40,877 nucleotides of DNA from a virus. A program made the position numbers and the translations under genes. The DNA lies in the UHGV virus genome UHGV-1515682, one strand, 5' to 3'. Shown here one piece after another: positions 12,703 through 38,695 of this stretch; within the stretch, counting starts at the first letter, position 1, and each line of letters opens with the position of its first letter. The notes beneath the pieces are model-generated. The model had not been told where the DNA came from and did no database searches. It saw nothing but the letters and a program-made list of their open reading frames with translations.

Positions 12703-12742
12703 GAGTAGATTATGCATGATGAATTTGATGGTTTTGAATACT

Positions 12743-12768
12743 GCCGCCAACTATGGCGGCTTTATTTT
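12743..12768 (+). terminator. Rho-independent terminator upstream of terminase genes (tR'-like)
   Basis: gccgcc-aactat-ggcggc hairpin followed by tttatttt. Confidence 0.6.
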
Positions 12769-12811
12769 GCATGGTACTATTACCACAACGGTAACTATTA
12801 CCACGGTGGTT

Positions 12812-13408
12812 ATGATGCCTGCTGAACCTAAAACCTATAAACGCAAATCAACGCAATTTAAGCCGCTCACAGCAATGCAGGAGGCTTATTGCCAGTCATA
12901 CATCAAAACGCCTGAAAACCAGACTCAGGCAGCGATTAACGCAGGATTCTCCCCAAATACAGCGGCAGTTAAAGCCAGTGTCATGATGCGCGATGAACGC
13001 ATTCAAAAACGGATTGCCGAGTTGATGGAGGAGCGCAACAAACGAATGCGCGTCAGTGCTGATTACGTTCTCATGCGCCTGGTGGAGATCGACCAGATGG
13101 ACGTGATCGACATCCTCAACGACGATGGGAGCCTTAAGCCAATCCGCGAGTGGCCGAAAATCTGGCGCACTACGCTTAGTGGCTTTGATCTGTCATCGAC
13201 CATCATGAACATGAACGAGGATTCGATAGAGACAATCCTCAAAAAAATTAAATGGCCTGACAAGGTGAAGAACCTCGAACTGATTGGTAAGCATGTTGAT
13301 GTCAACGCGTTCAAAGAACGTCTGGATGTTAATGTGAATGTGACAATTGCTGATCGCATAGCAGCAGCCAGGAAGCGACTCAAAGAACGTCAGGATGGTA
13401 ATCAGTGA
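12812..13408 (+). CDS. Terminase small subunit
   Basis: ~198 aa; motif QEAYCQSYIKTPENQTQAAINAGFSPNTAAVKASVMMR typical of phage small terminase; immediately upstream of and overlapping large terminase; start at ATG 12812. Confidence 0.65.
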   Translation: MMPAEPKTYKRKSTQFKPLTAMQEAYCQSYIKTPENQTQAAINAGFSPNTAAVKASVMMRDERIQKRIAELMEERNKRMRVSADYVLMRLVEIDQMDVIDILNDDGSLKPIREWPKIWRTTLSGFDLSSTIMNMNEDSIETILKKIKWPDKVKNLELIGKHVDVNAFKERLDVNVNVTIADRIAAARKRLKERQDGNQ

Positions 13409-14880
13409 AAGATACAGCGTTATCTCCTGAAGAGCAGTTGATCGAGGATATTGCAGGGTTCACTCACGATCCGCTTGGTTATGCCCTCTATGCGTTCCCG
13501 TGGGGGGAAGAGGGGACTGAACTGGCACATGCCACCGGTCCACGTCAGTGGCAGGCCGATGCGTTCCGAGAGATACGTGATCACCTGCAGAATCCAGAGA
13601 CGCGCTATCAGCCGCTTATGCTGGCACGCGCTTCTGGTCACGGTATTGGTAAATCCGCATTCATCTCAATGCTGATCAACTGGGGCATGTCCACTTACGA
13701 GGATTGTAAGGTCGTGGTGACCGCCAACACCGACAACCAGCTACGAACGAAGACCTGGCCGGAAATTATCAAGTGGTCGAACCTTGCTATCACGAAAGAC
13801 TGGTTTACCTGTACCGCTACCGCGATGTACAGCAATGACCTAGGGCACGACAAGCGGTGGCGGGCTGACGCAATACCCTGGTCTGAGCACAACACCGAGG
13901 CATTCGCCGGACTACACAACGAGCGCAAACGCATCATCGTGGTGTTTGATGAAGCGTCGAACATTGCGGATCTGGTGTGGGAAGTTGCCGAGGGTGCGCT
14001 TACGGACGAAGACACTGAGATTATTTGGGTGGCGTTCGGAAACCCTACACGTAACACCGGGCGTTTTCGCGAATGTTTCCGCAAATATAAACACCGCTGG
14101 AAAACTGCGCAGATTGACAGCCGGACGGTGGAAGGCACTAACAAACAGCAGTTGCAGAAATGGGTTGATGACTACGGGGAAGACAGCGACTTCGTTAAAA
14201 TCCGTGTGCGCGGCATATTCCCTGATGCATCTGAATTGCAGTTTATCCCTACCGGTCTTACTGATGAGGCAATGAAACGGGTGGTAACCGCTGCGCAGGT
14301 TGCACATGCTCCGGTGATAATCGGCGTTGACCCGGCATACTCCGGCGTTGATGACGCTGTGATATACCTGCGGCAGGGGCTGCACAGTAAGGTGCTGTGG
14401 ACCGGCAACAAGACCACTGACGATCTGATTATGGCAAAGCGTATCGCTGACTTTGAAGACCAGTATCAGGCTGACGCGGTGTTCATCGACTTCGGTTACG
14501 GTACCGGGCTGAAGTCAATCGGTGACGGTTGGGGGCGCACATGGCAACTTGTTCCGTTCGGTGGCGCGTCTACTGACCCGCAGATGCTCAACAAGCGTGG
14601 GGAGATGTTCAACTCATGCAAGACATGGCTGAGGCTGGGCGGCATGCTGGATGACCAGGAAACAGCGGACGACCTGTCGGCGGCAGAGTACAAAGTTCGC
14701 GTGGACGGTAAAATCGTTATCGAACCGAAGGAAGATATCAAAGAGCGGCTTGGGCGTTCTCCTGGTAAAGGCGATGCGCTACTGCTGACGTTTGCGTTCC
14801 CTGTGTCGAAGCGTCTGCGAATTCCCGGGCAGCAGAACCAGCAAGGCAAGGCGCTTACCGAGTACGATCCATATGCTTAG
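13405..14880 (+). CDS. Terminase large subunit
   Basis: 491 aa; Walker A-like ASGHGIGKS, ATPase plus nuclease regions; GTGA overlap with small subunit. Confidence 0.9.
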   Translation: MKDTALSPEEQLIEDIAGFTHDPLGYALYAFPWGEEGTELAHATGPRQWQADAFREIRDHLQNPETRYQPLMLARASGHGIGKSAFISMLINWGMSTYEDCKVVVTANTDNQLRTKTWPEIIKWSNLAITKDWFTCTATAMYSNDLGHDKRWRADAIPWSEHNTEAFAGLHNERKRIIVVFDEASNIADLVWEVAEGALTDEDTEIIWVAFGNPTRNTGRFRECFRKYKHRWKTAQIDSRTVEGTNKQQLQKWVDDYGEDSDFVKIRVRGIFPDASELQFIPTGLTDEAMKRVVTAAQVAHAPVIIGVDPAYSGVDDAVIYLRQGLHSKVLWTGNKTTDDLIMAKRIADFEDQYQADAVFIDFGYGTGLKSIGDGWGRTWQLVPFGGASTDPQMLNKRGEMFNSCKTWLRLGGMLDDQETADDLSAAEYKVRVDGKIVIEPKEDIKERLGRSPGKGDALLLTFAFPVSKRLRIPGQQNQQGKALTEYDPYA

Positions 14881-15695
14881 TCTTTATTTTTATCATCGAA
14901 ACCTGATAATCCAGATAGAACACCAAAGTTATTAAAAACGTTTGGCTTACCAGATTTTAATCCGGATAAGTTGTGTTGCTCCAAAAAGTTGCTAATTGTT
15001 TGGCCGTTGCCAAGTGCAAGGCTTTTTATTTGAGATTTTTCAGGGTATTTGAGTTTGTATTCGTCGAAATCATTTTGGAGGGTCTTATATGCCTCATTCA
15101 TTCTTCCCAGAGTTTCCGATATCTCTTTTAATGAATGATTTAGAGCTGCTAACTGAGCACTGGCGGATCTCAATTCGTCATCTTTAGCTTTCAACTCGGC
15201 AGTCAATTCCCCCATACTATTCTTTGATCGAATAATCTCTTCTTTCATCTCTTGGATGTCTTTTTCCGCGCCAGTCTTAACTTTGTCGTATGTAACATCT
15301 TTTTTAGCCAATAACCTCTGCAGTCTGGTTTCACGCTGGATTTTTCTTGCCTTCAGGTGATTTTCGATTGAGTCATTATTATCAAGAGGCTTTGCTTGCC
15401 ATACGTTAATGATATTGTTTACCCATGGTAATAGGCAGCAGATAGCAATTACAGATAAGCATGGATAAAACATAACAGTTTTCCATGTGCTGTTATCTGA
15501 GATATATGAAATTTTATCTATTATGTTTGATTTGCTAAAAAATAGATAAAGAATTGATTTCCAGTTGAAGGCGCACCAGGACATAACAAAAGCACCAAGC
15601 ACAGGGTTTTTGGCTCGATTCACGGCAGTATTGGCAGTAGATAAAAACAGCTCTTTAAACGATTCAAACATGCTAATTACCTTGAAGTTTTTCAT
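14877..15695 (-). CDS. AT-rich cargo gene: membrane-anchored coiled-coil protein of unknown function
   Basis: 272 aa from ATG 15695 (MKNFKVISMF); two predicted TM helices then long coiled coil; opposite strand to flanking late genes; low GC. Confidence 0.6.
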   Translation of the reverse strand: MKNFKVISMFESFKELFLSTANTAVNRAKNPVLGAFVMSWCAFNWKSILYLFFSKSNIIDKISYISDNSTWKTVMFYPCLSVIAICCLLPWVNNIINVWQAKPLDNNDSIENHLKARKIQRETRLQRLLAKKDVTYDKVKTGAEKDIQEMKEEIIRSKNSMGELTAELKAKDDELRSASAQLAALNHSLKEISETLGRMNEAYKTLQNDFDEYKLKYPEKSQIKSLALGNGQTISNFLEQHNLSGLKSGKPNVFNNFGVLSGLSGFDDKNKD

Positions 15696-15699
15696 GATT

Positions 15700-15714
15700 A
15701 TACCTTTAAGGTAA
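15700..15714. promoter_or_regulatory. Dyad operator-like site atacctttaaggtaa adjacent to cargo gene start
   Basis: ATACC-N5-GGTAA (one mismatch) 5 bp upstream of ATG 15695. Confidence 0.45.
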
Positions 15715-15767
15715 TTTGCGGTCATCAAGCAAAAAAATGCCCGGCGAACCGGGCGAACTGGAAGCAA

Positions 15768-15790
15768 TGAGTTATGCCTTCCGTGGCTGT
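15768..15790 (-). terminator. Rho-independent terminator downstream of tRNA (minus strand)
   Basis: Minus-strand GCCCGG-TTCG-CCGGGC followed by T7 (A-run 15768-15774 on + strand). Confidence 0.55.
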
Positions 15791-15917
15791 ACGGGTTTAC
15801 AGCATGAAGTCATCGCAATGGCGTCCTGCTGTAAAAAGGGCGGTGATAGTCCTTCAAGGGAAACCATCACCGCCAAGCACCTGGAACTTCTGGCATCACG
15901 GTCCTTAGGCGTGATTC

Positions 15918-15994
15918 TGGCGTGGCATGCAGGATTCGAACCTGCGACCAACCGCTTAGAAGGCGGTTGCTCTGTCCAACTGAGCTAATGCCAC
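15918..15994 (-). tRNA. tRNA-Arg (anticodon UCU)
   Basis: Hand-folded cloverleaf: acceptor GTGGCAT/ATGCCAC, D-arm GCTC…GAGC, anticodon stem ACCGC/GCGGT with loop CTTCTAA, T-arm GCAGG-TTCGAAT-CCTGC, discriminator G, encoded CCA. Confidence 0.85.
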
Positions 15995-16315
15995 AACGCT
16001 GAGAGCACTTAGCCTGTTAAGGCGCCACACTTTGTCGCGGCTCCATAAATGCTCTCATCGTTGTACCCTCGTCTCTTCCGAGGCGTCACACCGAATCGCC
16101 GGGATGGTGAATCCCGTGCGCGGAATAAAACCGCTCGACTTGCACATTCCGGCTACCTGGTTCGTTTGCCCGAGCAAGGGAGGGTGCCCCTTAAACGGAT
16201 CCAGACCGCTATCGGCGCATGTGCCATACGCCGTACTGCTCAAAATAAAAGCTCACTCCACCTGTTTAATTTAACGACAAGCCAGTCAGGTTAGTAACCA
16301 GAATGAGCTCTTTAG

Positions 16316-16330
16316 TTACCTGAAAGGTAA
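16316..16330. promoter_or_regulatory. Dyad operator-like site ttacctgaaaggtaa upstream of head gene operon
   Basis: Perfect TTACC-N5-GGTAA; same sequence as site 35925. Confidence 0.5.
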
Positions 16331-16420
16331 TAATTCACGCGTTAAATGTCAACTTTCTACGATAAATAAATCATATGTGGTTAAATTGGTAATAATTTAA
16401 TTGCGTACGGAGTCATTGAT

Positions 16421-16627
16421 ATGTGCATGGGTAGCTCACCATCAGTGCCTGCAACACCAGAAGTTCAGGCAGCACCACAGGAGCAGGATGCCGCCGTTGT
16501 TGATGCCCGCGACGAAGAAACACGTCGCCGTCGCGCTGCTGCTGGTCGTAGTTCTACGCTGCTTACCGGTTCTCAGGGCGACACATCAACCGCTAATACC
16601 AGCGGTAAAACGCTGCTTGGTCAGTAA
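16421..16627 (+). CDS. Hypothetical small protein preceding portal
   Basis: 68 aa; ACGGAG RBS identical in context to the portal RBS. Confidence 0.45.
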   Translation: MCMGSSPSVPATPEVQAAPQEQDAAVVDARDEETRRRRAAAGRSSTLLTGSQGDTSTANTSGKTLLGQ

Positions 16628-16641
16628 CCGGAGTCATTGAA

Positions 16642-18321
16642 ATGGCGGAAACAACTAAAGAGCGATTGAACAAACAGTTCGCACAACTTGAAAGCGAGCG
16701 TCAGTCGTTCGAGCCGCACTGGCGCGAGTTGAGTGATTACATCAACCCGCGTGGTTCCCGCTTTCTGACTTCTGAGGTCAACCGTAACGATCGACGCAAT
16801 ACACGCATTATTGATTCGACCGGGACTATGGCGGCGCGAACTCTCGCCAGCGGCATGATGTCAGGCATCACAAGCCCCGCGCGTCCGTGGTTTCGCCTGG
16901 CTACGCCAGATCCTGAAATGATGGATTATGGCCCTGTTAAGTTGTGGCTTGAGGCGGTGCAGAACCGCATGAACGATATGTTCAATAAGTCGAATCTCTA
17001 CCAGTCTCTTCCGCAGTTATACGGAAGCCTCGGCACATACAGCACCGGTGCAATGGCGGTACTGGAGGATGACGAGGACATCATTCGCACAATGCCATTC
17101 CCGATAGGCAGTTACTACCTGGCTAACTCACCTCGTGGCAGTGTGGACACCTGTTTTCGCAAGTTCTCTATGACTGTTCGTCAGCTTGTTCAGGAGTTCG
17201 GGCTAAATAACGTCAGCGAATCCGTAAAAAGCATGTGGGAAAGCGGCACCTACGAGAAGTGGATTGAAGTGATGCATTCGGTTTACCCGAACATTGACCG
17301 CGATACATCGAAGCTGGATAGCAAGAACAAGCCATTCAAATCGGTTTATTACGAGGTTGGTGGCGATAACGACAAGTTGTTGCGTGAGTCCGGATTCGAT
17401 GAGTTTCCAATTATGGCTCCGCGCTGGGAAGTTAACGGCGAAGATGTTTATGGATCATCATGCCCGGGTATGCTGGCGCTTGGACCTGTTAAGGCATTGC
17501 AGCTTCTCCAGAAGCGCAAGTCGCAGTTGATTGATAAAGCCACCAATCCGCCGATGGTTGCTCCGACTTCCCTCAAGAATCAGCGCGCCTCCCTTCTTCC
17601 TGGCGACATCACGTATATCGATCAGATTACTGGTCAGGATGGTTTCAGGCCTGCTTATCTGGTTAACCCCAGTACAGCAGATCTGGTAGCAGACATTCAG
17701 GACACTCGCCAAATCATTAACAGCGCCTACTTTGTCGATCTGTTCATGATGTTGCAGAACATCAATACCCGCTCGATGCCTGTTGAAGCAGTGATCGAAA
17801 TGAAAGAAGAAAAGCTTCTGATGTTGGGGCCGGTTCTGGAGCGTCTGAACGACGAATGTCTTAATCCTCTCATTGACCGCGCTTTCTCGATGATGGTGCG
17901 TAAAAACATGCTGCCGCCACCGCCTGACGCGATGGAAGGCATGCCCCTGAAGGTCGAATACATTTCCGTCATGGCTCAGGCGCAGAAGTCTATCGGCCTG
18001 TCCAGTCTGGCGTCTACGGTCAACTTCATTGGTCAACTTGCGCAAGCGAAACCAGAAGCTCTCGACAAACTCAACGTTGATCAGGCGATCGATGCATTCG
18101 CTGATATGTCCGGAGTGTCTCCAACCGTCATTGTTCCGCAGGAACAGGTTGAGCAGGCTCGCCAGCAACGGGCACAGCAGCAACAGCAGCAACAAATGAT
18201 GGCGATGGGAATGGCGGCGGCACAGGGCGCCAAGACGCTAAGCGAAGCTAAAACTTCGGATCCGAGTGTTTTGTCAGCTATGGCGAATGCAGTTAGTGGT
18301 CAGGGTGGGCAATCACAATGA
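16642..18321 (+). CDS. Portal (head-to-tail connector) protein
   Basis: 559 aa; size and position ahead of scaffold/capsid; C-terminal Gln/Ala-rich tail. Confidence 0.65.
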   Translation: MAETTKERLNKQFAQLESERQSFEPHWRELSDYINPRGSRFLTSEVNRNDRRNTRIIDSTGTMAARTLASGMMSGITSPARPWFRLATPDPEMMDYGPVKLWLEAVQNRMNDMFNKSNLYQSLPQLYGSLGTYSTGAMAVLEDDEDIIRTMPFPIGSYYLANSPRGSVDTCFRKFSMTVRQLVQEFGLNNVSESVKSMWESGTYEKWIEVMHSVYPNIDRDTSKLDSKNKPFKSVYYEVGGDNDKLLRESGFDEFPIMAPRWEVNGEDVYGSSCPGMLALGPVKALQLLQKRKSQLIDKATNPPMVAPTSLKNQRASLLPGDITYIDQITGQDGFRPAYLVNPSTADLVADIQDTRQIINSAYFVDLFMMLQNINTRSMPVEAVIEMKEEKLLMLGPVLERLNDECLNPLIDRAFSMMVRKNMLPPPPDAMEGMPLKVEYISVMAQAQKSIGLSSLASTVNFIGQLAQAKPEALDKLNVDQAIDAFADMSGVSPTVIVPQEQVEQARQQRAQQQQQQQMMAMGMAAAQGAKTLSEAKTSDPSVLSAMANAVSGQGGQSQ

Positions 18322-29614: not shown

Positions 29615-32089
29615 ATGAGACAGGAATGTATACAAGCGGTTCAGCAGGCGGCGCAGCGCATGTTAACGGCGCGAGAAATACAGAACATTGAAGACCGCAT
29701 TTATCGAAATATGCGCTCCATTGCTCGTGATGACCCTATGTCGTGGCGACAACTTTCCGAATCAGAGCGGCTATATCGAGCAGCACAATTGGCATCTGAA
29801 GAATTACAGCGAGAAGCGGCATTAAAGAAACGTCGTGTGGCTCTCACTATAGCCGCGCGTCAGAGATTGGATAAATTTATCAATAGCTATCAAGGGGCTG
29901 ATGGGAAACTTGGCGCTCTTAACCGTACTATAGCTTTTAATGCAGACGGTAAATCTAATTTCCTCTCTGTTGAATCCAGAACAAAAGCCACCCGTGATTA
30001 TGCATTGAGTCAATTGCAGGAGGCATTCGAAGCAGTTGATCCTCGCTTTTTTGGTCTGTTTGAAGATGAAGCGGGCGTACGTGACCTGGTATATGAAATG
30101 CGGGGGCAAAATACTGGCAATGCTAAAGCAAGAAACGGTGCTAAGGCGTGGAGAGAAGTTACAGAGCTGCTGCGCCGCCGGTTTAATGATGCTGGTGGGG
30201 ACATTGGCTATCTCGAAAACTGGGGGATCCCTCAACATCATTCTATGGAAAAGGTTGGGGCAGTATCAAAGGATAAGTGGGTTAGCGATGTTATAGGTAA
30301 GCTGGATCGCAAATATTATATCCGAGCCGATGGACAACTGATGAACGATGCCGAGTTGTCTTCATTTCTTGGAGAGGCTTATAACACGATCGCTACTGGT
30401 GGGCTGAATAAGCTTACTGATACCGGAATGCGAATTTCCGGCGCACGTGCTAACCGTGGTAATGCATCACGACAGATACATTTCAAAGATGCAGATTCCT
30501 ATCTGCAATATCAGCAACTTTATGGCGATCGCTCTCTATGGGAAATCATGGTCGGTCACCTGGAAGGTATCAGTAAAGATATTGCACTGGTGGAAACATA
30601 TGGCCCAAACCCCGATCATGTTTTCCGCTCTCTTCTTGATCAGGTGAAGGCAGAAACGGCAACAGCTAACCCGAGTAAAACCGGTAAAGTCGAGCGGCTG
30701 GCGAACAACACAGAGAATCTGTACAACTTTATTTCCGGAAAGACACAGCCTGTAGCGAATCCGCACATCGCGCGATGGTCTGACAATATCCGCAACTGGC
30801 TGGTTGCCAGCAGACTCGGATCCGCGTTGCTGTCATCGTTCTCTGATCTTGGAACCATGTATCTGTCTGCGAAGGTTACCAACCTTCCAATGAACCAGTT
30901 ATTCCGCAACCAGCTTGAAGCTATGGACCCAACGAACCGTACAGAACTTGCGCGGGCGCGCCGCGCTGGTCTGGCGATGGAATCTCTACTTGGCAGCGTT
31001 AACCGCTGGGCGATGGATAATATGGGGCCGTCAGTGTCTCGTTGGGCGGCAACGGCGGTAATGCGTGCCAGTGGGCTTACAGCATGGTCAGATGCGCACA
31101 AGCGCGCCTATGGCGTAACCATGATGGGAAGCCTGGGAGAAGTAGTGTCACGGACACCAGACCTTCGTAGCCTCGATGACTCTGATTTTCGTATCCTGAA
31201 AAGCAAAGGGATTACTGACATAGACTGGAGCGTATGGAAGCTGGCGAAACAGGAGGACTGGGGGAACGGTAATAATACGATGCTGACACCGGAAAGCATT
31301 ATGCGTATCCCTGATTCAGCAGTTAAACATCTTGGTGAGCCTGAACGCGTGAAATTTGAGGCAATGCGTAAACTGCTCGGTGCCGTAACTGAAGAAGTTG
31401 ATATGGCTGTTATTACACCGGGAGCACGTGAGCAACTGATAACCGGTTCTGGTATTCAGCGTGGAACATGGAAAGGTGAATTAACGAGAAGTGTTTTCCT
31501 GTTTAAATCGTTCCCTATCTCGGTTGTTATGCGTCACTGGTCACGCGCTATGGGTATGCCGTCTGCTGGTGGGCGTGCGGCATATATTGCGACGTTTATT
31601 GCCAGTACGACCATTCTTGGCGCTTTGTCGCAGCAACTTAACGACCTTGCGTCTGGTCGTAATCCTCGAGAGATGACAGGAGAAGATGCCGCAAAATTCT
31701 GGCTTGGTGCTCTACTGAAAGGTGGTGGTCTTGGCCTTTACGGTGACTTTTTATTGTCAGATCACACTAGGTACGGAAGCGGCGCGCTGGCGTCGATGCT
31801 TGGCCCGGTAGCTGGTCTGGTTGATGACGTAGTGAAGATTGCTCAGGGCATACCGTTAAATGCTGTGGAAGGGAAGAGTGAGCAGACTGGTGGTGATCTG
31901 GTGAAGCTGGGGAAAGGTTTGATGCCTGGTGCGAATCTCTGGTACTTGAAGGCGGCTCTCGATCACATGATCTTTAACCAGATGCAGGAGTATTTTTCAC
32001 CAGGCTATTTGCGTAAAATGGAGCAACGTTCGAAGAAAGAGTTTAACCAGACATACTGGTGGCGACCACAGGATGTCACTCCGCAATAA
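29615..32089 (+). CDS. Large internal virion/ejection protein
   Basis: 824 aa; C-terminal Gly-rich hydrophobic region. Confidence 0.55.
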   Translation: MRQECIQAVQQAAQRMLTAREIQNIEDRIYRNMRSIARDDPMSWRQLSESERLYRAAQLASEELQREAALKKRRVALTIAARQRLDKFINSYQGADGKLGALNRTIAFNADGKSNFLSVESRTKATRDYALSQLQEAFEAVDPRFFGLFEDEAGVRDLVYEMRGQNTGNAKARNGAKAWREVTELLRRRFNDAGGDIGYLENWGIPQHHSMEKVGAVSKDKWVSDVIGKLDRKYYIRADGQLMNDAELSSFLGEAYNTIATGGLNKLTDTGMRISGARANRGNASRQIHFKDADSYLQYQQLYGDRSLWEIMVGHLEGISKDIALVETYGPNPDHVFRSLLDQVKAETATANPSKTGKVERLANNTENLYNFISGKTQPVANPHIARWSDNIRNWLVASRLGSALLSSFSDLGTMYLSAKVTNLPMNQLFRNQLEAMDPTNRTELARARRAGLAMESLLGSVNRWAMDNMGPSVSRWAATAVMRASGLTAWSDAHKRAYGVTMMGSLGEVVSRTPDLRSLDDSDFRILKSKGITDIDWSVWKLAKQEDWGNGNNTMLTPESIMRIPDSAVKHLGEPERVKFEAMRKLLGAVTEEVDMAVITPGAREQLITGSGIQRGTWKGELTRSVFLFKSFPISVVMRHWSRAMGMPSAGGRAAYIATFIASTTILGALSQQLNDLASGRNPREMTGEDAAKFWLGALLKGGGLGLYGDFLLSDHTRYGSGALASMLGPVAGLVDDVVKIAQGIPLNAVEGKSEQTGGDLVKLGKGLMPGANLWYLKAALDHMIFNQMQEYFSPGYLRKMEQRSKKEFNQTYWWRPQDVTPQ

Positions 32090-32097
32090 AAGGAGAT

Positions 32098-32232
32098 ATG
32101 ATGGTTCAAATAACTTTTATTGTACTAATATGTGCAGCGTTTTTATGCTATTCATACATTTTGATAAAAATGGGTTTCAATTGGAATCTCTGTTGCGTGC
32201 AGCGGCATGGTTCGGCTTTGTAGTATTCGGAA
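32098..32232 (+). CDS. Small hydrophobic peptide (44 aa)
   Basis: ATG 32098/32101 preceded by AGGAG; hydrophobic product; AT-rich; below ORF-track cutoff. Confidence 0.3.
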
Positions 32233-32308
32233 TTGTATTGTTCGGAAGAATAATAAAATAACTAGTTAATTTGTGGATTGGTGCTGTTTTTCCATGATAG
32301 GGGTAATT

Positions 32309-32689
32309 ATGAGAAAAGTATTTTTGATTTTTGGATTTATGCTTCTCGTTGGATGCCAGTCAGCTGCACAGTTTGAAAGAAATATGCTTACGTGGCGCGG
32401 GCAGAGTATAGACGCAATGGTTCAGCAGTGGGGGTATCCTCAGGGAGAGCTTACATCTCCAGATGGAAACAGAGTGTATGTTTACTCAAGCTCTGGTAGT
32501 TATAACGTACCACAAACCACAACGTATAATACTACGTCTAATCTAATTGGTAATACTATATATTCAAACACATACGCAACAACTGATGGCGGTTATACAC
32601 TCCATTTCAGTTGCTCTGTTTACGTTGAGTTTGGTGCTGATAAGATTATTAAAAATGTTACATGGCGCGGTAATAATTGCGTTGCGTGA
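32309..32689 (+). CDS. Cargo lipoprotein
   Basis: 126 aa; signal peptide with lipobox (MRKVFLIFGFMLLVGC); AT-rich; Ser/Thr/Asn/Tyr-rich mature region. Confidence 0.6.
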   Translation: MRKVFLIFGFMLLVGCQSAAQFERNMLTWRGQSIDAMVQQWGYPQGELTSPDGNRVYVYSSSGSYNVPQTTTYNTTSNLIGNTIYSNTYATTDGGYTLHFSCSVYVEFGADKIIKNVTWRGNNCVA

Positions 32690-32697
32690 CATGTCAC
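32686..32697. repeat. Perfect 12-bp palindrome GTGACATGTCAC (copy 2)
   Basis: Overlaps stop codon of lipoprotein gene; immediately followed by terminator. Confidence 0.5.
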
Positions 32698-32722
32698 AGG
32701 CCGCTTTCGCGGCCTTGTTTTT
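32698..32722 (+). terminator. Rho-independent terminator after lipoprotein gene
   Basis: aggccgc-tttc-gcggcct hairpin followed by tgttttt. Confidence 0.65.
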
Positions 32723-32882
32723 AACGAATGCCACCGCCACCCGGGCGGGAATCCGCAGAACGCCCACCGCAGCGGGAGCCGTCAGCGGCAGTATCGCTGT
32801 CGTGCTGACAACGACCGGCAAAGGCCTGAGTTGAAGCTACCAGAGACAACAAAACGAACAGTGCAGCAAATGCTTTTTTCAT
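32721..32882 (-). CDS. Possible small secreted peptide (53 aa)
   Basis: Internal ATG gives MKKAFAALFVLLSLVASTQAFA signal-peptide-like N-terminus; mature part low-complexity and GC-rich, so may be spurious. Confidence 0.25.
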   Translation of the reverse strand: MKKAFAALFVLLSLVASTQAFAGRCQHDSDTAADGSRCGGRSADSRPGGGGIR

Positions 32883-32943
32883 TGTGACATTTCCATCTAT
32901 AAGCCACCTCAATGTGGCGTCAATGAGTGTAGCACTGACTTTT

Positions 32944-32966
32944 GTTTCGTCCACAAAAAAGCCCGC
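32944..32966 (-). terminator. Rho-independent terminator after 32981-33613 gene
   Basis: Minus-strand AGAAGCCCGC-AGCG-CGGGCTT followed by T6. Confidence 0.6.
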
Positions 32967-32980
32967 GCTGCGGGCTTCTA

Positions 32981-33613
32981 TTAATGCAGTTTATCTTTGC
33001 TTATAACCAGTAGTCTGTGGGTATGCACATCTTTATCACTGCCCCAACAGAAATCAGCCCACTGGCTATAGAAATCATCCCATGATGTCATGAAGCTAAG
33101 AGGTCTATCTTCTTCAGAGCCATCTGAAACGTATACATTATATCCTGGGGTGTTTATAGCCCAAGAAATCATTCTTTCCCAGAATCTTCTCCCATCGATT
33201 GTTTGTTGCTCATCAGATACAACGATCGCATATTGCTCTAGGAAGAACTGAAAAAAAATCTGAGGCAAACCATGAACAGCACGGTCATGAATAACATTAG
33301 GCGTACGCCATACCATGATCTGCGTACATGTTCTTTTGGCTTCGACGATATCTTCCCGAAAGATTAACTTAACCGCATACACCGTTTCTGGAGTATCGCT
33401 GGTAGTAATCATTCTGTAATGATCGCCATTACAAGATTTTACAAGGCGATAACCATAAGGTGTTGTGAATCCCGGAAGAACGAAGTCAACCACACCTTTC
33501 GCTAAGTAGCTTTCGGTGTGACTAGTGTTCTTCTCAGACATGTTCAGTTTTCTATCGAAATCTGCTTCTGGGATAATGTATGGCATCGCTTTTCTTGTTG
33601 TATTTGTTCTCAT
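32981..33613 (-). CDS. Cargo protein of unknown function (210 aa)
   Basis: AT-rich ORF with own terminator and operator-like site 60 bp upstream; no recognisable motif. Confidence 0.55.
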   Translation of the reverse strand: MRTNTTRKAMPYIIPEADFDRKLNMSEKNTSHTESYLAKGVVDFVLPGFTTPYGYRLVKSCNGDHYRMITTSDTPETVYAVKLIFREDIVEAKRTCTQIMVWRTPNVIHDRAVHGLPQIFFQFFLEQYAIVVSDEQQTIDGRRFWERMISWAINTPGYNVYVSDGSEEDRPLSFMTSWDDFYSQWADFCWGSDKDVHTHRLLVISKDKLH

Positions 33614-33672
33614 TTCGTCCTCCCATGTTTGGCTACAGGACGCGTTTTGAAGGGAAGATTAAAAATGCTTTC

Positions 33673-33687
33673 TTACCCTTGAGGTAA
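33673..33687. promoter_or_regulatory. Dyad operator-like site ttacccttgaggtaa
   Basis: Perfect TTACC-N5-GGTAA upstream of 33613 gene start. Confidence 0.5.
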
Positions 33688-33758
33688 TAGTACGCTATTC
33701 ACCCCAAGTCTGCAATCTGTACAGAATTATTTAAAGGTACGTCCCTGTGCCGCCGCCG

Positions 33759-34445
33759 TCAGAAGAACCCTGCCTTGTCGTTGATGTACTCCGCGTGCGT
33801 CTGGATATCACGCAGGCATTTGCTCACACCAACGATGTAACAGAACATGGTGGTCAGCTCCGCCGCCGCGCCCGATACGTCGTGCCCGTCTTCCTGTAAC
33901 TGGTTCAGCAGATTCATCAGCAGTGAGTTCTCCGTCAGGCCGAGAACACCAGACGGCGAATGAATCAGGCTACGGTAGCCTGGCTTCAGTGGGGCACTGT
34001 AGGTTTTGTTCTCTATCTTCATCGCCTGCATTACTGCTGACGCCGTGGCGTTGGCTACCTGGTCGGCAACCATCTTTATGCGTTCTTCCTGCGGGAGCGA
34101 GTTTTTAATGTAACTTCCGGTGCGGCGGATCTGAGGAAGAACCTCACCTGTAACCCATTTACGAAAGCGGTATGGGATAGTGCCTGGTGTCACCGCATCG
34201 CGGCAGCGGAGGATCAGTGTGTAGAGGCCTGACTCGTTGATAATATTGGTTTCGCCTTGACGGCCTAAGTTAAATTTAGCCCTTTCATCATCATCAAGAG
34301 ATTTTATTGACATAGTGGGGTTTGTCAGTTGAAGAGCTTTAATAACGTCTTTGGCAACAAACCAAGGATTTCCATCAATAACAATGGCTCGAATGGTTGC
34401 TTCTGATTCAAAATGAAAAACAGATGGGGTTACGTTAGCAGTCAT
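33759..34445 (-). CDS. Bro-N domain antirepressor-like protein
   Basis: 228 aa from ATG 34445; N-terminal Bro-N signature (FHFESEATIRAIVIDGNPWFVAKDV…GLYTLILR…RFRKWVTGEVLPQIRRTGSY); C-terminal ~70 aa homologous to the product of 35591-35848. Confidence 0.75.
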   Translation of the reverse strand: MTANVTPSVFHFESEATIRAIVIDGNPWFVAKDVIKALQLTNPTMSIKSLDDDERAKFNLGRQGETNIINESGLYTLILRCRDAVTPGTIPYRFRKWVTGEVLPQIRRTGSYIKNSLPQEERIKMVADQVANATASAVMQAMKIENKTYSAPLKPGYRSLIHSPSGVLGLTENSLLMNLLNQLQEDGHDVSGAAAELTTMFCYIVGVSKCLRDIQTHAEYINDKAGFF

Positions 34446-34721
34446 AGTGATCACCTTTGTAGTTAGGTTAATCACCACTACCGACGCCAATCGGTTGGTG
34501 GTGAACTGTGCAGGGTTGGCGTAACCGGCTACAAAGGACCCGGCGCACCTTTCGGTGCCCCCACACAGCCCACCATAGAATAGGTGCGCTTTACACATAA
34601 AAAAACCGCTTATGCGGCATATGTGCCTCTGTAGTAATCCGGGACGCCAATCCCGGCACTGGATTTTGCCAGTGCCCGATTACTATGGCACAAGAGGAGT
34701 GCGATGTAAATTTACCGTAAA

Positions 34722-34736
34722 GGTAATGATAAGCGC
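34722..34736. promoter_or_regulatory. Dyad operator-like site ttaccgtaaaggtaa
   Basis: Perfect TTACC-N5-GGTAA in divergent region between ant and 34840 gene. Confidence 0.5.
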
Positions 34737-34804
34737 GAAGAAACATTAAAATCAACCGTATTTGGTTGATTGCGTTTAACGCTTGATCACCTGAAAGCAA
34801 GATA

Positions 34805-34819
34805 TTACCTTTAAGGTAA
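34805..34819. promoter_or_regulatory. Dyad operator-like site ttacctttaaggtaa
   Basis: Perfect TTACC-N5-GGTAA 21 bp upstream of ATG 34840. Confidence 0.5.
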
Positions 34820-34839
34820 TGTTATTGTGAGGAAAAGCA

Positions 34840-35568
34840 ATGGAAGTTTTCTGGATAGTTGTTGGTGTGGTTGCGGTGATTATTTACGTTATCAACCAGA
34901 ACAAGACTAAGATCTCTGATCGTACGGTCGTTAATCATAACAAAACGATAAAGACCGAAGATGGGGAGATAACGATTAATCGTACACAGGTGATAGAACA
35001 CACCTCTACTCAGTTTCAAAAAACTGGAGGTAATGCGCCTAATATTTCCGCACCTCCTGCTTATGATAGTGCGGTAATCCAGACATATTATAAACAGCAG
35101 GAGTTAGCAAAAGAGAGGCAACTGATTCAGCCAAAGCCGTTTACAGCTGAGATTCCACCTGGAGTGTCAACGCGTCCGGCATATCATGGAAGATTCCCTG
35201 GTGATGACATATCGTCTCAGTCATCTAAAAAAGCACCTCAGGCAATATCAGAGCCAGCAAGAATACCTTCTGTATCGCCGCCAAAAGAAGAATCAGCTAA
35301 CAGAGTTTCAAGTGGTAGCAAGCAGTGCTTGCGATGCAGAATAAACCTTCCATATGAAAAATTCAGGAAATCGTCAAAAAATCCAGATGGATTGACTAAA
35401 TGGTGTGCAAGGTGTCTCGATGGCCCAAAGAATACACGCCATATGAAGTGGTGCCCAATTTGTAATGTCCGCAGAAAACGAACCAGCTTTTACCCTAATA
35501 ATCAAAATGCGGACGGCTTAATGGCATGGTGCAAAACGTGCTGGGATGAGCACAAAGCGAAACGATAG
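34840..35568 (+). CDS. Membrane-anchored protein with two C-terminal zinc-ribbon-like repeats
   Basis: 242 aa; N-terminal TM helix; repeated C-x2-C…DG…W-C-x2-C units. Confidence 0.55.
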   Translation: MEVFWIVVGVVAVIIYVINQNKTKISDRTVVNHNKTIKTEDGEITINRTQVIEHTSTQFQKTGGNAPNISAPPAYDSAVIQTYYKQQELAKERQLIQPKPFTAEIPPGVSTRPAYHGRFPGDDISSQSSKKAPQAISEPARIPSVSPPKEESANRVSSGSKQCLRCRINLPYEKFRKSSKNPDGLTKWCARCLDGPKNTRHMKWCPICNVRRKRTSFYPNNQNADGLMAWCKTCWDEHKAKR

Positions 35569-35584
35569 GCCGCTCTTGCGGCCT
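35567..35584. terminator. Hairpin between convergent genes
   Basis: aggccgc-tctt-gcggcct stem-loop overlapping stop of 34840-35568. Confidence 0.45.
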
Positions 35585-35590
35585 TTAAAT

Positions 35591-35848
35591 TTACCGGGTT
35601 TGTTTTCGTAATTGTTCGGCACAATAGTCGAGATGTGTTTGCAGATCCCGCATAGACATCTGTGAGCTGGTGACGTAGTTAATCAGTGCAGTCAGTTCGG
35701 CAAGTGGGCCATCGACATTAAATCCATCCTTATCGAGATCCCGGAGTAATTTCATCAAGTGCGATCCCTCCACCAGTGACCTGACGCCTCCCGGCGTGTG
35801 AATCCTTTCGGTAAATCCGTCTTCCAGTGGATAGTGATACTGCTGCAT
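35591..35848 (-). CDS. Small antirepressor-like protein behind a LexA box
   Basis: 85 aa from ATG 35848 (MQQYHYPLEDGF…) with GGAGAAG RBS; homologous to C-terminal domain of Bro-N protein; near-consensus LexA box 20 bp upstream. Confidence 0.6.
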   Translation of the reverse strand: MQQYHYPLEDGFTERIHTPGGVRSLVEGSHLMKLLRDLDKDGFNVDGPLAELTALINYVTSSQMSMRDLQTHLDYCAEQLRKQTR

Positions 35849-35867
35849 CTTATCTTCTCCATGCAAT

Positions 35868-35887
35868 AACTGTATGTTTATACAGTA
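35868..35887. promoter_or_regulatory. LexA (SOS) box AACTGTATGTTTATACAGTA
   Basis: CTGT-N8-ACAG with AT-rich spacer, 17/20 to TACTGTATATATATACAGTA; overlaps TATAAA -10-like hexamer on minus strand. Confidence 0.65.
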
Positions 35888-35924
35888 ACAAATAATTTGT
35901 TTGCTATCCAGCACGTTTTGCAAA

Positions 35925-35939
35925 TTACCTGAAAGGTAA
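35925..35939. promoter_or_regulatory. Dyad operator-like site ttacctgaaaggtaa
   Basis: Perfect TTACC-N5-GGTAA upstream of LexA box. Confidence 0.5.
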
Positions 35940-36043
35940 TATCTATTCGTATTTACAGCATTTCTATCCATATGTGGTTTTTCAGGTAATAGAATAACCA
36001 GATATGCGGCGCAACGGGTGCTGCGACTATCTGGAGATTTAAC

Positions 36044-38695
36044 ATGACGGTCTCAACCGAAGTTGACCACAACGAATACACTGGTAACGGAGCTACGACA
36101 TCATTTCCGTATACCTTCCGTATTTTCAAAAAATCCGACCTGGTTGTTCAGGTGTCTGACCTGAACGGGAACGTAACAGAATTGGTTCTGGATACTGACT
36201 ACACAGTAACCAATGCTGGAGGATATAATGGCGGTAATGTAATTCTGTCGAAGGCGTTGGCTAACGGTTATCATATTTCTATATCACGAGAACTCCCGGT
36301 TACGCAGGATACTGATTTGCGTAATCAGGGTAAGTTCTTCGCTGAGGTACATGAAGACGCGTTCGATAAACTGACAATGCTTATTCAAAAGTGTTTTTCA
36401 TGGATGAGGTTAGCACTTATAAAACCAAGCATTCTGGCTAACTATTATGATGCAAAAAATAATAAGATATCAAATCTAGCAAATGCCACTGACAGAAACG
36501 ATGCTGTCAATAAAGGTTATGTTGATGATCTTTTTACTGGAGGTGTAACGCCTACACCTAACAGCGCTAAAAACGATATTTTTACAAATCACCAAAGAAA
36601 GATTGTAGCTACGATGCCGCTTCTTTTTCCTGAATATGATGCGATTATGGCTGCTAACCCGTCAGCAACTTATATGTATCCTCAAGGATTCTGCGTTAGC
36701 GAAGATTTGATATACATCACTTATCCATTTGAGCCTAAACAGACGAATAATGTCGTCGCAGTATTTAACATATCTGGTATTTATCAAGGTTATTTCTATG
36801 TTCAGGCTGGCGGCCCAGGCTTCGCTGCTGAAGGAATCGTGGTTACGTCAGACTATGGCCCCAAAAAAATGTTTGTTGGTCACACAAACGGAATACTGCG
36901 TGAATTTAATATGGAGGGGGCATTATACGGAAGCAATCTGCCTCTTGTACAAAACCATGATGTTGGATTATTCAACCAGTTCAGCTACAGAAGAGGTATA
37001 TGGCTCGTTGAGCAGAATGCGCCAGAAGTAGGACAGAAAATCACAAGAACTGTACTTGCAGTGTTCGACAGTGGTTTCAATCGCCTGTCAACTATAACGC
37101 TGCCGTTACATGATGTTGGGTATGTAACTAAAAGCACCTCACCTTATGCGCCTTATTTCAACAAGCGTCAGGGTATTGCGGTAGGTGATAACTACTTTGT
37201 CTGTGGCTATGGCGGCTTCATAGCTGATGGGGCAGGAAGCGCAGGATATAACGAATATCAGGGCAGCAAAGTTTTTAACCCTGACGGTACAAAGCGAACT
37301 GAATCAATGCTTCATCCTCAGGCCATGATGGATTTAATGAAAGCCGCAGGATTGAACGTCACTCGCATAGAAAATGAAGGCGTTTGTGTTTCTCAGGATG
37401 GAAAATCCATTTATTCACTTTACATTCATCAGGAAAGAACTGGCTCTGAACCTTACAATTCAGGTTTGGTTATTTTCGAAGATTTCTCCACTGATAAAGA
37501 TGCTATCGATTTTACACCTGCATCCAGGCTTTACCGCGGATTTGATATCGATCACGCGAGCATTGGGGTATATCCCCGTAGTGCGAAGGGGATTGTTAAC
37601 CCTGTAGATGGTACGTTGTTCACTAACATGACTGAAATTCTTCGCTATATGCAGGAGATGAGTCAGAAGGCATTTAATTTTTACACAGGGACTGTCAGCA
37701 TTGCTGATATATCTGGCGTGGCAATCCCTTCCAGCACATATGTTGAAATACTGAATGCGAATAATCAGACTTTTATAGTCAACTATTATTCATCTGATAG
37801 TGGTATTAGTTATTTGGTTGCAACTAATCCTTCTGGTGACTTTGTATTTGTGCGCCAGCGACCGGCACAGTGGGCATCTAACTTAACCATTCAGCAAAAC
37901 GCAGATCCTGATACAAACCAATTAAACCGCATCACTGCATCATCATATGCCGGTGCAACTACAAACTCTCAGAAAATATTGGTCCTTGACCAGCAGGCTA
38001 CAGCTAGCGCAAATAGCTTGGTATTGGGCGGTAGTTCTTCTGTGTTTAGGTCTGCCACCACGGTGGATATTGCATGCAACAGCGACCCGACAGCATTGGG
38101 AGGAACCATACGCTGGCGGTTTTATGATACAGGTCTTCGCCCGTTTGCTGACAATACCTATAATTTTGGTCAGGCATCGTTTCGTATTAAAGACGCCTAC
38201 TTTGCAAATGCCCCAACCGTTTCATCAGATGCCACGCTGAAAACCAATCCCGAGGCAATATCAGATTTAAGTGAAATGCTTTCTTCTGATAGAGACAGCA
38301 TTCTTGATGCCTGGGGCGATATTTCTGTTGTGGCGTATCGATGGCTCGACGCTATATCCATGAAGGGCGATGGTGCCAGATGGCATTTTGGCGTCATGGC
38401 TCAGCAGGTAAGGGATGTATTCTTGGCGCACGGAATTGATGGAACCAGATTTGGCCTTCTTTGCTATGACGAGTGGGACGATATTTTTGAGCCGGTAATC
38501 GCGACTAAAGAGATTACCGATACGTCTGGTGAGTTGGTCACCGTCGAATATGACACCGGAGAACAGAGGCTGGTTAAAAAAGCGGGTAGTTCATGGGGTA
38601 TACGGCCTGACCAGTGCGCTTGGCTTGAGGCTGCATATCAGCGCCGTCGATGCGATCGTATTGAAGAGCGACTCGAACTATTGGAATCAAAATAA
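36044..38695 (+). CDS. Tailspike/tail fibre with C-terminal intramolecular chaperone (S74-like) domain
   Basis: 883 aa; conserved tail-fibre N-terminus; C-terminal SDATLKTN…HFGVMAQQV…GLLCYDEWDD resembles the autoproteolytic chaperone domain; GGAG RBS. Confidence 0.75.
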   Translation: MTVSTEVDHNEYTGNGATTSFPYTFRIFKKSDLVVQVSDLNGNVTELVLDTDYTVTNAGGYNGGNVILSKALANGYHISISRELPVTQDTDLRNQGKFFAEVHEDAFDKLTMLIQKCFSWMRLALIKPSILANYYDAKNNKISNLANATDRNDAVNKGYVDDLFTGGVTPTPNSAKNDIFTNHQRKIVATMPLLFPEYDAIMAANPSATYMYPQGFCVSEDLIYITYPFEPKQTNNVVAVFNISGIYQGYFYVQAGGPGFAAEGIVVTSDYGPKKMFVGHTNGILREFNMEGALYGSNLPLVQNHDVGLFNQFSYRRGIWLVEQNAPEVGQKITRTVLAVFDSGFNRLSTITLPLHDVGYVTKSTSPYAPYFNKRQGIAVGDNYFVCGYGGFIADGAGSAGYNEYQGSKVFNPDGTKRTESMLHPQAMMDLMKAAGLNVTRIENEGVCVSQDGKSIYSLYIHQERTGSEPYNSGLVIFEDFSTDKDAIDFTPASRLYRGFDIDHASIGVYPRSAKGIVNPVDGTLFTNMTEILRYMQEMSQKAFNFYTGTVSIADISGVAIPSSTYVEILNANNQTFIVNYYSSDSGISYLVATNPSGDFVFVRQRPAQWASNLTIQQNADPDTNQLNRITASSYAGATTNSQKILVLDQQATASANSLVLGGSSSVFRSATTVDIACNSDPTALGGTIRWRFYDTGLRPFADNTYNFGQASFRIKDAYFANAPTVSSDATLKTNPEAISDLSEMLSSDRDSILDAWGDISVVAYRWLDAISMKGDGARWHFGVMAQQVRDVFLAHGIDGTRFGLLCYDEWDDIFEPVIATKEITDTSGELVTVEYDTGEQRLVKKAGSSWGIRPDQCAWLEAAYQRRRCDRIEERLELLESK

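Follow-up and report, generated by a model that had tools for sequence, protein, structure and literature searches.

Why does an AT-rich gene run on the minus strand through the otherwise plus-strand late region of a prophage, and what might its product do? The gene lies in UHGV virus genome UHGV-1515682, a stretch of 40,877 nt (hereafter the window) that represents an epsilon15/phiV10-like (genus Uetakevirus) E. coli prophage. It separates the plus-strand terS/terL genes (12716–14880) from the plus-strand portal gene (16642–18321), and we call it the cargo gene. A first-pass annotation, made from the sequence alone, had described it as a lysogen-expressed moron encoding a membrane coiled-coil protein and had proposed a role in superinfection exclusion (Sie) or abortive infection (Abi). 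The explanation that we put first, and hold tentatively, is that it is a mobile cassette in a Uetakevirus hotspot, encoding a single-gene phage-exclusion or Abi factor whose promoter is probably under repressor control.

The cargo gene differs from its neighbours in composition as well as in strand: its GC content is 36.7% (terL, 54.6%; portal, 51.8%) and its GC at third codon positions (GC3) is 0.37 (0.62 and 0.59). Its TAA stop codon, the reverse complement of 14877–14879, overlaps the TAG of terL at 14878–14880. In strand, AT-richness and overlapping stops the first-pass annotation was correct. A 1.3-kb segment around the gene is 99.8% identical to a guaA-adjacent prophage in NZ_CP095086, where the order is terS, terL, an opposite-strand 272-aa (amino acid) 'hypothetical protein', tRNA-Arg, a 68-aa gene, portal, protease and major capsid; the Prokaryotic Genome Annotation Pipeline (PGAP) of RefSeq calls the same 272-aa coding sequence (CDS) in this E. 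coli prophage. The open reading frame (ORF), 14877..15767 on the minus strand, yields 272 aa if the ATG at 15695 is used. While the reported 272-aa ORF is real, the true start is most likely the ATG at 15671, which would give a product of 264 aa. We favour this start because almost all of 120 listed homologues begin at the position of Met9 (MLES(L/F)KE...), because the upstream ATG is lineage-specific, and because a Shine-Dalgarno (SD)-like AAGG lies 8 nt 5' of ATG 15671. The 8-residue N-terminal extension occurs only in very close relatives: a CAGAAAAAA to CATGAAAAA change, 1 nt past the -10 hexamer, creates the upstream ATG in the window's lineage only (the window DNA reads TATAATCATGAAAAA where other alleles have TAnAATCAGAAAAAA), and this ATG falls 5' of any plausible transcription start. 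Residue numbers below refer to the 264-aa start unless stated otherwise.

To place the protein we searched for relatives. A word-based search gave 177 homologous clusters, all from Enterobacteriaceae and all 'hypothetical', and a profile of the N-terminal 165 residues matched 2,453 representatives (clusters at 50% identity) at E<=1e-3, 377 of them at E<=1e-10. The profile matches have a common layout of N-terminal module, coiled coil and variable end. Through a distant member the search also recruited Bacteroidota proteins, from Pedobacter, Capnocytophaga, Chryseobacterium, Sphingobacterium and Flavobacteriia, which score E 1e-10 to 1e-20 against the enterobacterial N-terminal profile at whole-library scale. 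Among PHROGs the protein is a member of phrog_4780 (E 6e-137 over residues 9–272 in the 272-aa numbering), with weaker matches to phrog_13369 and phrog_35327; phrog_4780 has no assigned function and so gives no hint on mechanism. Compared with 25 homologous genes over the N-terminal 160 codons, the proportion of synonymous differences (pS) is 0.73–0.93, that is, saturated, except for the three closest alleles, and that of non-synonymous differences (pN) is 0.14–0.31. Where it can be measured, the ratio of non-synonymous to synonymous rates (dN/dS) over residues 1–160 is 0.06–0.09. This part of the protein is under strong purifying selection. These results bear directly on the suspicion that the ORF is a chance one, antisense to a non-coding spacer. 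Nothing speaks for it beyond the absence of a functional annotation; thousands of homologues with conserved motifs, saturated synonymous sites beside a non-synonymous divergence of 0.14–0.25, and a conserved promoter and SD all speak against it. We regard it as refuted by the word and profile searches and the selection analysis, with a negligible residual probability.

The protein is predicted to consist of an inner-membrane module, made up of an amphipathic helix and a two-helix hairpin, followed by a cytoplasmic coiled coil. Hydropathy marks one strong hydrophobic segment at about residues 66–92 and a weak one at about 27–45 (Kyte-Doolittle 1.23). An AlphaFold 2 (AF2) model of the N-terminal 134 residues, built on a diverse 44-sequence alignment, has a mean predicted local distance difference test (pLDDT) score of 89 and shows helices at 2–20 (amphipathic), 23–35, 37–45 and 50–60, with a kink at 36, and one long helix at 63–133. 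Of the two N-terminal transmembrane (TM) helices originally proposed, the second is therefore well supported, while the first is only weakly hydrophobic and is kinked at Asn36-Trp37. This kink carries the family-wide invariant residues, N36 and W37; R19, P23, G26, F28, P70 and P82 are nearly invariant. Across the 44 diverse members, net positive charge falls on the N-terminus and the segment following TM2 and net negative charge on the loop between the helices, a distribution that favours an N-in, loop-out, C-in topology. The long coiled coil was borne out: hydrophobic enrichment at heptad a/d positions over residues 134–212 is 0.727 compared to 0.169 in shuffled sequences, a value reached by 0 of 2000 shuffles, and the coiled coil comprises about 11 uninterrupted heptads before a short tail. 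In the full-length AF2 model (pLDDT 67.7) the long helix extends to about residue 208 with pLDDT >90.

The two ends of the protein have evolved differently. In three homologues (L035, L037 and L042) the N-terminal part is close to that of the window (pS 0.33, pN 0.04) and the tail is unrelated (pN 0.54), while L009, L045 and L047 show the reverse pattern. Among 115 enterobacterial homologues we counted 27 tail classes. Because the N- and C-terminal histories are discordant and the tail classes so many, the distal coiled coil and tail behave as a unit that recombination moves from one allele to another, joined to a membrane module and stalk that stay conserved.

What known protein does it resemble? 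The remote-homology and structure-prediction check suggested at the outset returned no informative match in Pfam, NCBIfam, PADLOC, the PDB or fold comparison. A Pfam scan of the cargo protein gave only sub-threshold coiled-coil matches, and a Pfam scan of 10 distant family members gave no match at all; the N-terminal profile found nothing below E 0.47 among PDB sequences, and the full-length AF2 model had no match with E<1 in BFVD. In PADLOC-DB v2 the only matches were to the coiled-coil arms of DndD, PbeC, LmuB and JetC (E 2e-5 to 0.3; residues 92–260). We rejected these and the other NCBIfam, Pfam and PADLOC matches (SMC, DndD, LmuB, JetC and similar) as compositional coiled-coil noise, and did the same with PHROG matches to major head and tape-measure families (E 0.004–0.025). 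Altogether, the Pfam, PHROG and PADLOC scans revealed no homologue among known Sie and Abi families or among virion assembly proteins, and the gene is absent from related phages. Likewise, Pfam and PHROG gave no match to holins, spanins or other lysis or assembly families, and the position between terL and portal is outside the lysis cassette. The family motif is absent from the DefensePredictor validated tables, where the TM/coiled-coil proteins are unrelated, and we found no mention of WP_021542590 in the literature searched; neaT, which surfaced in a search of the phiV10 and moron literature, is an unrelated acyltransferase. A profile scan of genome contigs with the N-terminal alignment confirmed zero loci, its patterns being too narrow. 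So far as the searched libraries and literature show, the family with its Asn-Trp membrane module, modular tails, breadth and epsilon15-type operator wiring (see below) is undescribed. The kind of protein is already known: a prophage accessory membrane protein, candidate for an exclusion or Abi factor.

The end of terL and the tRNA segment are found in phiV10 and its relatives as in the window, whereas the gene in between is not. We compared this interval across genomes. Among 79 phiV10-like viral contigs the terL-portal stretch occurs in 12 variants. The slot may hold the cargo gene (264- or 246-aa alleles), a PF13876 (Gp49/Sf6 gp66) gene, one of three other small genes of no known function, or combinations of these, or it may be empty (L120). 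Whatever the cargo, it reads on the minus strand and lies in the interval bounded by the terL stop and a conserved block of terminator plus tRNA. Part of a 1.3-kb query (terL end, gene, tRNA) is matched in 513 of 5,426 complete E. coli genomes (~9%), and 80% or more of it in only 37. Outside this slot, lambdoid prophages in Klebsiella and Citrobacter have a lone opposite-strand copy of the gene, with the same promoter, between their replication genes and their nin genes; a 31%-identical relative has the same nin-region position in another lambdoid prophage, without that promoter, and a Cronobacter copy lies in a degraded island. Copies outside the phiV10-like slot, the lambdoid ones included, have fragments of the 3' end of a phiV10-type terL downstream (36–150 aa, 43–82% identity), and the Klebsiella copy has kept about 130 nt of phiV10-type upstream sequence, the Citrobacter copy part of it. 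The presence of terL fragments 3' and of phiV10 backbone 5' of the transferred copies indicates that the cassette was exported from the phiV10-like slot by recombination, the terL fragments being probable relics of it. By its distribution the cargo gene is a horizontally mobile accessory gene in a terL-to-tRNA-Arg/portal hotspot.

Some further details of the slot were noted. It holds at least five unrelated minus-strand genes, among them the PF13876-like gene (2278–2649 in phiV10, L001; 2181–2546 in epsilon15, L176) and genes for 140-aa, 113-aa and 115-aa proteins of no known function. Double occupancy was seen in L093 and L159, and the slot variants compared span L093–L159. Fragments of the terL C-terminus lie 3' of the cargo homologue in L015 (7717–7818), L047, L048, L049, L051 and L057.

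How is the gene expressed? Taken alone, promoter-like matches are no more frequent here than chance would give (4 against 3.3 expected), and the promoter is credible through its conservation across contexts and not through its scan score. In every context of enterobacterial homologues at least 49% identical, whether phiV10-like, lambdoid or chromosomal, the upstream layout is the same: a hairpin terminator, the promoter, an A-rich leader and the SD. The conserved promoter parts are a -35-like TGATGACC or TGGTGAC, a spacer with TACC-N5-GGTA (usually TACCTTAAAGGTA), and a -10 of TAnAAT or TATACT; the 31%-identical relatives (L084–L087) do not have this conserved upstream region. A terminator between the gene and the tRNA had been claimed, and in fact two hairpins lie there, both 5' of the promoter, while the terminator scan found none after the gene's own 3' end. 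The hairpin next to the promoter has counterparts with different stem sequences 5' of homologues in other contexts, and it is predicted to insulate the cargo gene from transcription arriving from the tRNA side.

The palindrome in the spacer is not private to this gene. The first-pass annotation had correctly recognised an operator-like site at the start of the gene; the site is real and conserved, but it represents a phage-wide repressor-site motif and is no sign of expression in the lysogen. Strict TACC-N5-GGTA occurs 14 times in the window (0.53 expected; maximum of 4 in 300 shuffles), and a search allowing up to 2 mismatches gave 11 sites against 0.41 expected, a count that no shuffle matched. 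We therefore rejected the palindrome as an isolated, gene-specific operator. Two sites flank the repressor gene on its 3' side and another lies between repressor and cro; others precede integrase, the replication genes, and the 68-aa and portal genes, or lie at the terS start and around the antirepressor. In epsilon15 (NC_004775.2), ATTACC-N5-GGTAAT sites are annotated as protein_bind 'repressor / lysogeny': three left of the repressor gene, the others before terS, gp3, the tail-fibre gene and the resolvase gene. Two further copies of the motif lie in the epsilon15 repressor/gp39 intergenic region, and the window repressor is 43% identical to that of epsilon15. At the cargo gene the motif takes the form ATTACCTTAAAGGTATA, with a perfect left half and core and a right half of GGTATA where the consensus has GGTAAT; its core overlaps the spacer and the -10. 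The lambdoid carriers of the gene have a single copy of the motif, at this promoter. Judged by these matches, the cargo site belongs to the operator class that the phage itself uses, and it is placed where bound repressor should block RNA polymerase. Since the operator lies over the spacer and -10, repressor control is predicted rather than constitutive expression in the lysogen, and the simplest prediction for the native lysogen is repression or damping, with expression at infection or induction. One caveat comes from epsilon15 itself, where a weaker version of the motif precedes the serotype-conversion genes, which are expressed in lysogens. Of the 'lysogen-expressed moron', then, accessory cargo in a variable slot, of foreign composition and with a promoter of its own, is supported, and the operator gives reason to doubt the expression in the lysogen.

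Two side observations concern the motif. It often appears as the 17-mer ATTACC-N5-GGTAAT, most copies abut a -10-like TAnnnT, and its distribution suggests that one repressor directly controls many promoters genome-wide, late ones included. In the window's allele lineage the leader has a second copy of the operator half-site, CTTCAAGGTAAT, which pairs with the promoter palindrome as an inverted repeat; in RNA transcribed through it, this repeat would mask the SD that serves the 15671 start. We rejected the long inverted repeat as the operator, as conservation is limited to the core palindrome and the downstream arm is missing in most other alleles.

Such wiring raises the question of whether the protein serves the phage's own cycle, being made when repressor is absent, in lysis timing, in anchoring replication or injection, in host shutoff or in anti-defence. 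The integrase promoter carries the identical 17-mer (core 137–149), centred over spacer and -10. Counting each different upstream sequence once, 23 of 24 phiV10-slot variants retain the core (left half-site) compared with only 7 of 13 elsewhere, and the Chryseobacterium homologue is co-oriented within a prophage head-gene module. Yet the gene is dispensable, as relatives have an empty slot or unrelated alternatives; the terL unit is convergent and overlapping and should interfere with late expression; the family also exists outside phages, in defence islands; and the protein has no resemblance to lysis or assembly families. On balance we think a helper function unlikely. Tight control, seen in the upstream terminator and the operator over the -10, is also what a selfish membrane toxin or addiction module stabilising the prophage would need, its two-helix module being toxic when derepressed. 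The small membrane hairpin, in which a hydrophobic helix contains the invariant polar motif Asn-Trp(-Lys), fits that idea. Against it, we identified neither an antitoxin partner nor an antisense RNA (Rfam finds the tRNA only), type I toxins are unlike a 264-aa protein with so long a coiled coil, and the gene is solitary in many contexts. This makes a toxin very improbable.

We then asked what the genomic surroundings of distant homologues imply. Within 7 kb, 3 of the 7 Bacteroidota homologues examined have defence neighbours: the Pedobacter gene is near NACHT, GmrSD_N and HEPN genes, that of Sphingobacterium near McrBC and an AAA_21 protein, and that of Capnocytophaga near Lamassu LmuB_C/MC3 plus an HNH nuclease. 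The Abyssalbus homologue adjoins a gene for an Mrr-type nuclease, so that 4 of the 7 are beside defence or restriction genes, and the Chryseobacterium one is inside a prophage. The occurrence of the gene as a solitary opposite-strand accessory gene in several prophage types counts for a role in conflict, as does the combination of a hypervariable, recombining tail with a part that is strongly constrained. An exclusion or Abi role, as first proposed, is thus plausible from the genomic evidence. In such a role the protein would act as a membrane-anchored coiled-coil oligomer whose variable cytoplasmic end recognises a component of the invading phage. The effector would be the conserved membrane module, which would keep the genome from entering at the inner membrane or else permeabilise or depolarise that membrane. 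In the native phiV10-like setting the promoter would probably be held down by the prophage repressor and the protein would appear mainly during establishment or after induction, whereas copies in lambdoid prophages, lacking other operator copies, would be constitutive.

Several points weigh against an exclusion or Abi factor. Classical prophage exclusion operates in the stable lysogen, and an operator over the -10 speaks against expression there; its right half, GGTATA, deviates from the annotated GGTAAT, so that repressor binding is itself uncertain. Furthermore, 2 of the 7 Bacteroidota homologues (a small sample) lie among housekeeping genes with no defence neighbour, the alternative slot genes have zero PADLOC matches and no known defence role, and both topology and oligomeric state are predictions. 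Some of the same evidence would suit a lysogenic-conversion gene unrelated to defence, one that alters envelope physiology, stress tolerance or host interaction. The bor and lom genes of lambda are morons with such a role, and the cargo gene has the moron layout and foreign composition. Its lambdoid copies, outside the cognate operator network, would be expressed constitutively, and the two Bacteroidota homologues among housekeeping genes stand alone there. This reading seems improbable to us, however: most of the protein is predicted to lie in the cytoplasm and not at the cell surface, a hypervariable recombining tail is more typical of conflict systems, defence genes neighbour the majority of the distant homologues examined, and the operator suggests low expression in the native lysogen.

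We continue to place the exclusion or Abi factor first. A bolder and rather doubtful extension of it is that the 'ERxKNPxxGxFxxSWxxFNWK' module plus stalk defines a large, unrecognised single-gene anti-phage class, ranging from prophages of Enterobacteriaceae to Bacteroidota defence islands, in which the tail would give specificity and the hairpin would be the effector; the epsilon15/phiV10 copy would then be deployed in the establishment or lytic phase, shutting out competitors in that period, and would not guard the lysogen. If the protein is an exclusion or Abi factor, a widespread unannotated family joins the defence repertoire, and a conserved membrane effector with swappable tails would make specificity-swap experiments straightforward. 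The terL-to-tRNA slot of Uetakevirus prophages is a cargo hotspot worth mining. Finally, a cargo promoter that bears a phage operator, decaying after transfer, means that an opposite-strand AT-rich gene is not automatically expressed in the lysogen.

Which known systems come nearest? Lambda/P22 SieB (PF14163), an abortive-exclusion protein made from the prophage, may be the closest analogue, though not a homologue: a pair of TM helices at its N-terminus is followed by a basic juxtamembrane segment and then by a cytoplasmic part, as predicted for the cargo protein, and its gene in lambda (34482–35036, plus strand) ends back-to-back with N (35037–35438, minus strand), the cargo gene being likewise solitary and on the opposite strand. 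Homology to SieB was rejected, with no PF14163 match at E<=1 (lambda SieB itself scores 1e-29) and an hhalign probability of 1.7%. The cargo protein differs in its long coiled coil and modular tail, and expression control seems different. T4 Imm and Sp, which act in superinfection exclusion in the lytic phase, are small inner-membrane proteins made during active infection that block entry of a secondary phage genome. Their timing would match that of an operator-repressed cargo gene in its native phage, but there is no sequence relation (no Pfam match), Imm and Sp lack coiled coils, and T4 is virulent. PdpSau of an S. aureus prophage causes membrane permeabilisation upon Kayvirus infection (PMC10127798). 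It and AbiP of Lactococcus are single-protein Abi factors, prophage accessory proteins with an N-terminal membrane anchor and a positively charged cytoplasmic domain, as in the cargo protein; however, they have one TM helix and an oligonucleotide/oligosaccharide-binding (OB)-fold-like nucleic-acid-binding domain, whereas the cargo protein has a hairpin and a coiled coil, no OB fold and no homology to them.

Closer in location are p50/p03 of epsilon15/phiV10 (PF13876, N4 Gp49/Sf6 gene 66), which occupy the same terL-to-tRNA slot on the minus strand, 3' of the same terminator. They are unrelated small soluble proteins, and in epsilon15 there is no promoter or operator of their own between the terminator and the start codon. 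As in a Hendrix-type moron, the cargo gene is present or absent among collinear relatives and deviates in base composition. A conserved promoter precedes it, and no terminator follows its 3' end, since the stop overlaps that of terL.

Table 1. Features of the cargo locus and positions of the operator core, in window coordinates
Feature	Position	Strand	Basis
Most likely cargo CDS, 264 aa + TAA (14877–14879)	14877..15671	-	ORF list; homologue starts; phrog_4780 aligned from residue 9
Predicted conserved membrane module, residues 1–95	15387..15671	-	hydropathy; AF2; invariant columns; charge distribution; dN/dS
Conserved basic stalk, predicted cytoplasmic, residues 96–160 (KPLDNNDSIEN...TRLQRL...TGAEKDIQ), running on from TM2 helix	15192..15386	-	alignment; AF2; purifying selection
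Variable distal coiled coil + tail, residues 161–264	14880..15191	-	heptad periodicity; discordant N/C divergence; tail classes
SD-like AAGG	15680..15683	-	sequence; AAGG(G)/AAGAG kept at same position in homologous loci
Sigma-70-like promoter: -35 ATGACC (15725–15720), 17-nt spacer, -10 TATAAT (15702–15697)	15697..15725	-	promoter scan 10/12
Operator-type 17-mer (minus-strand letters), core TACC-N5-GGTA 15701–15713	15699..15715	.	motif search; epsilon15 annotation
Longer inverted repeat, 16-nt arms 15672–15687 / 15704–15719, 88%, spanning -10, upstream ATG and SD	15672..15719	.	repeat search
Terminator-like hairpin GCCCGGTTCGCCGGGC (15754..15739) + T run, directly 5' of promoter	15732..15754	-	terminator scan
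Second terminator-like hairpin, 14 pairs, just 3' of tRNA	15839..15874	-	terminator scan; kept in phiV10-like loci
tRNA-Arg, anticodon TCT, reads AGA	15918..15994	-	ARAGORN; Rfam tRNA 73 bits
Terminase large subunit, convergent with cargo gene, stops overlapping	13405..14880	+	ORF list; annotation of 99.8% identical record
Starts of 13-bp core	137, 6204, 6266, 6978, 7363, 9285, 9347, 12781, 15701, 16317, 33674, 34713, 34806, 35926		

The tRNA-Arg is also present in slots carrying other cargo and belongs to the phage backbone, not to the cargo. AGA accounts for 4 of the 8 Arg codons of the cargo gene and is absent from terL and portal; found with every cargo type, the tRNA-Arg(UCU) may serve AT-rich cargo generally. 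Between the tRNA and the cargo promoter lies a hairpin-rich non-coding stretch of about 130 nt (15755–15880, minus strand) that is conserved in phiV10-like phages and accompanies the cargo gene into the Klebsiella lambdoid prophage (L007 7840–7950, L009 and L003 were compared). An Rfam scan of 14500–16800 found the tRNA only, the conserved upstream hairpins there matching no RNA family. In the epsilon15 record the equivalent area includes an annotated RNase III site, and the stretch might yield a small RNA or be a leader or trailer that is processed.

Elsewhere in the window, positions 1–1443, with an integrase ORF beginning at 193, differ from the otherwise near-identical NZ_CP095086 prophage (L002), and the early, left-arm gene content is not collinear with it. 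A second low-GC region (0.40–0.44) at the right end of the prophage, 32000–38000, contains minus-strand genes and four operator copies; an antirepressor-like gene is seen in this region in a related record, and the region is probably more accessory or regulatory cargo.

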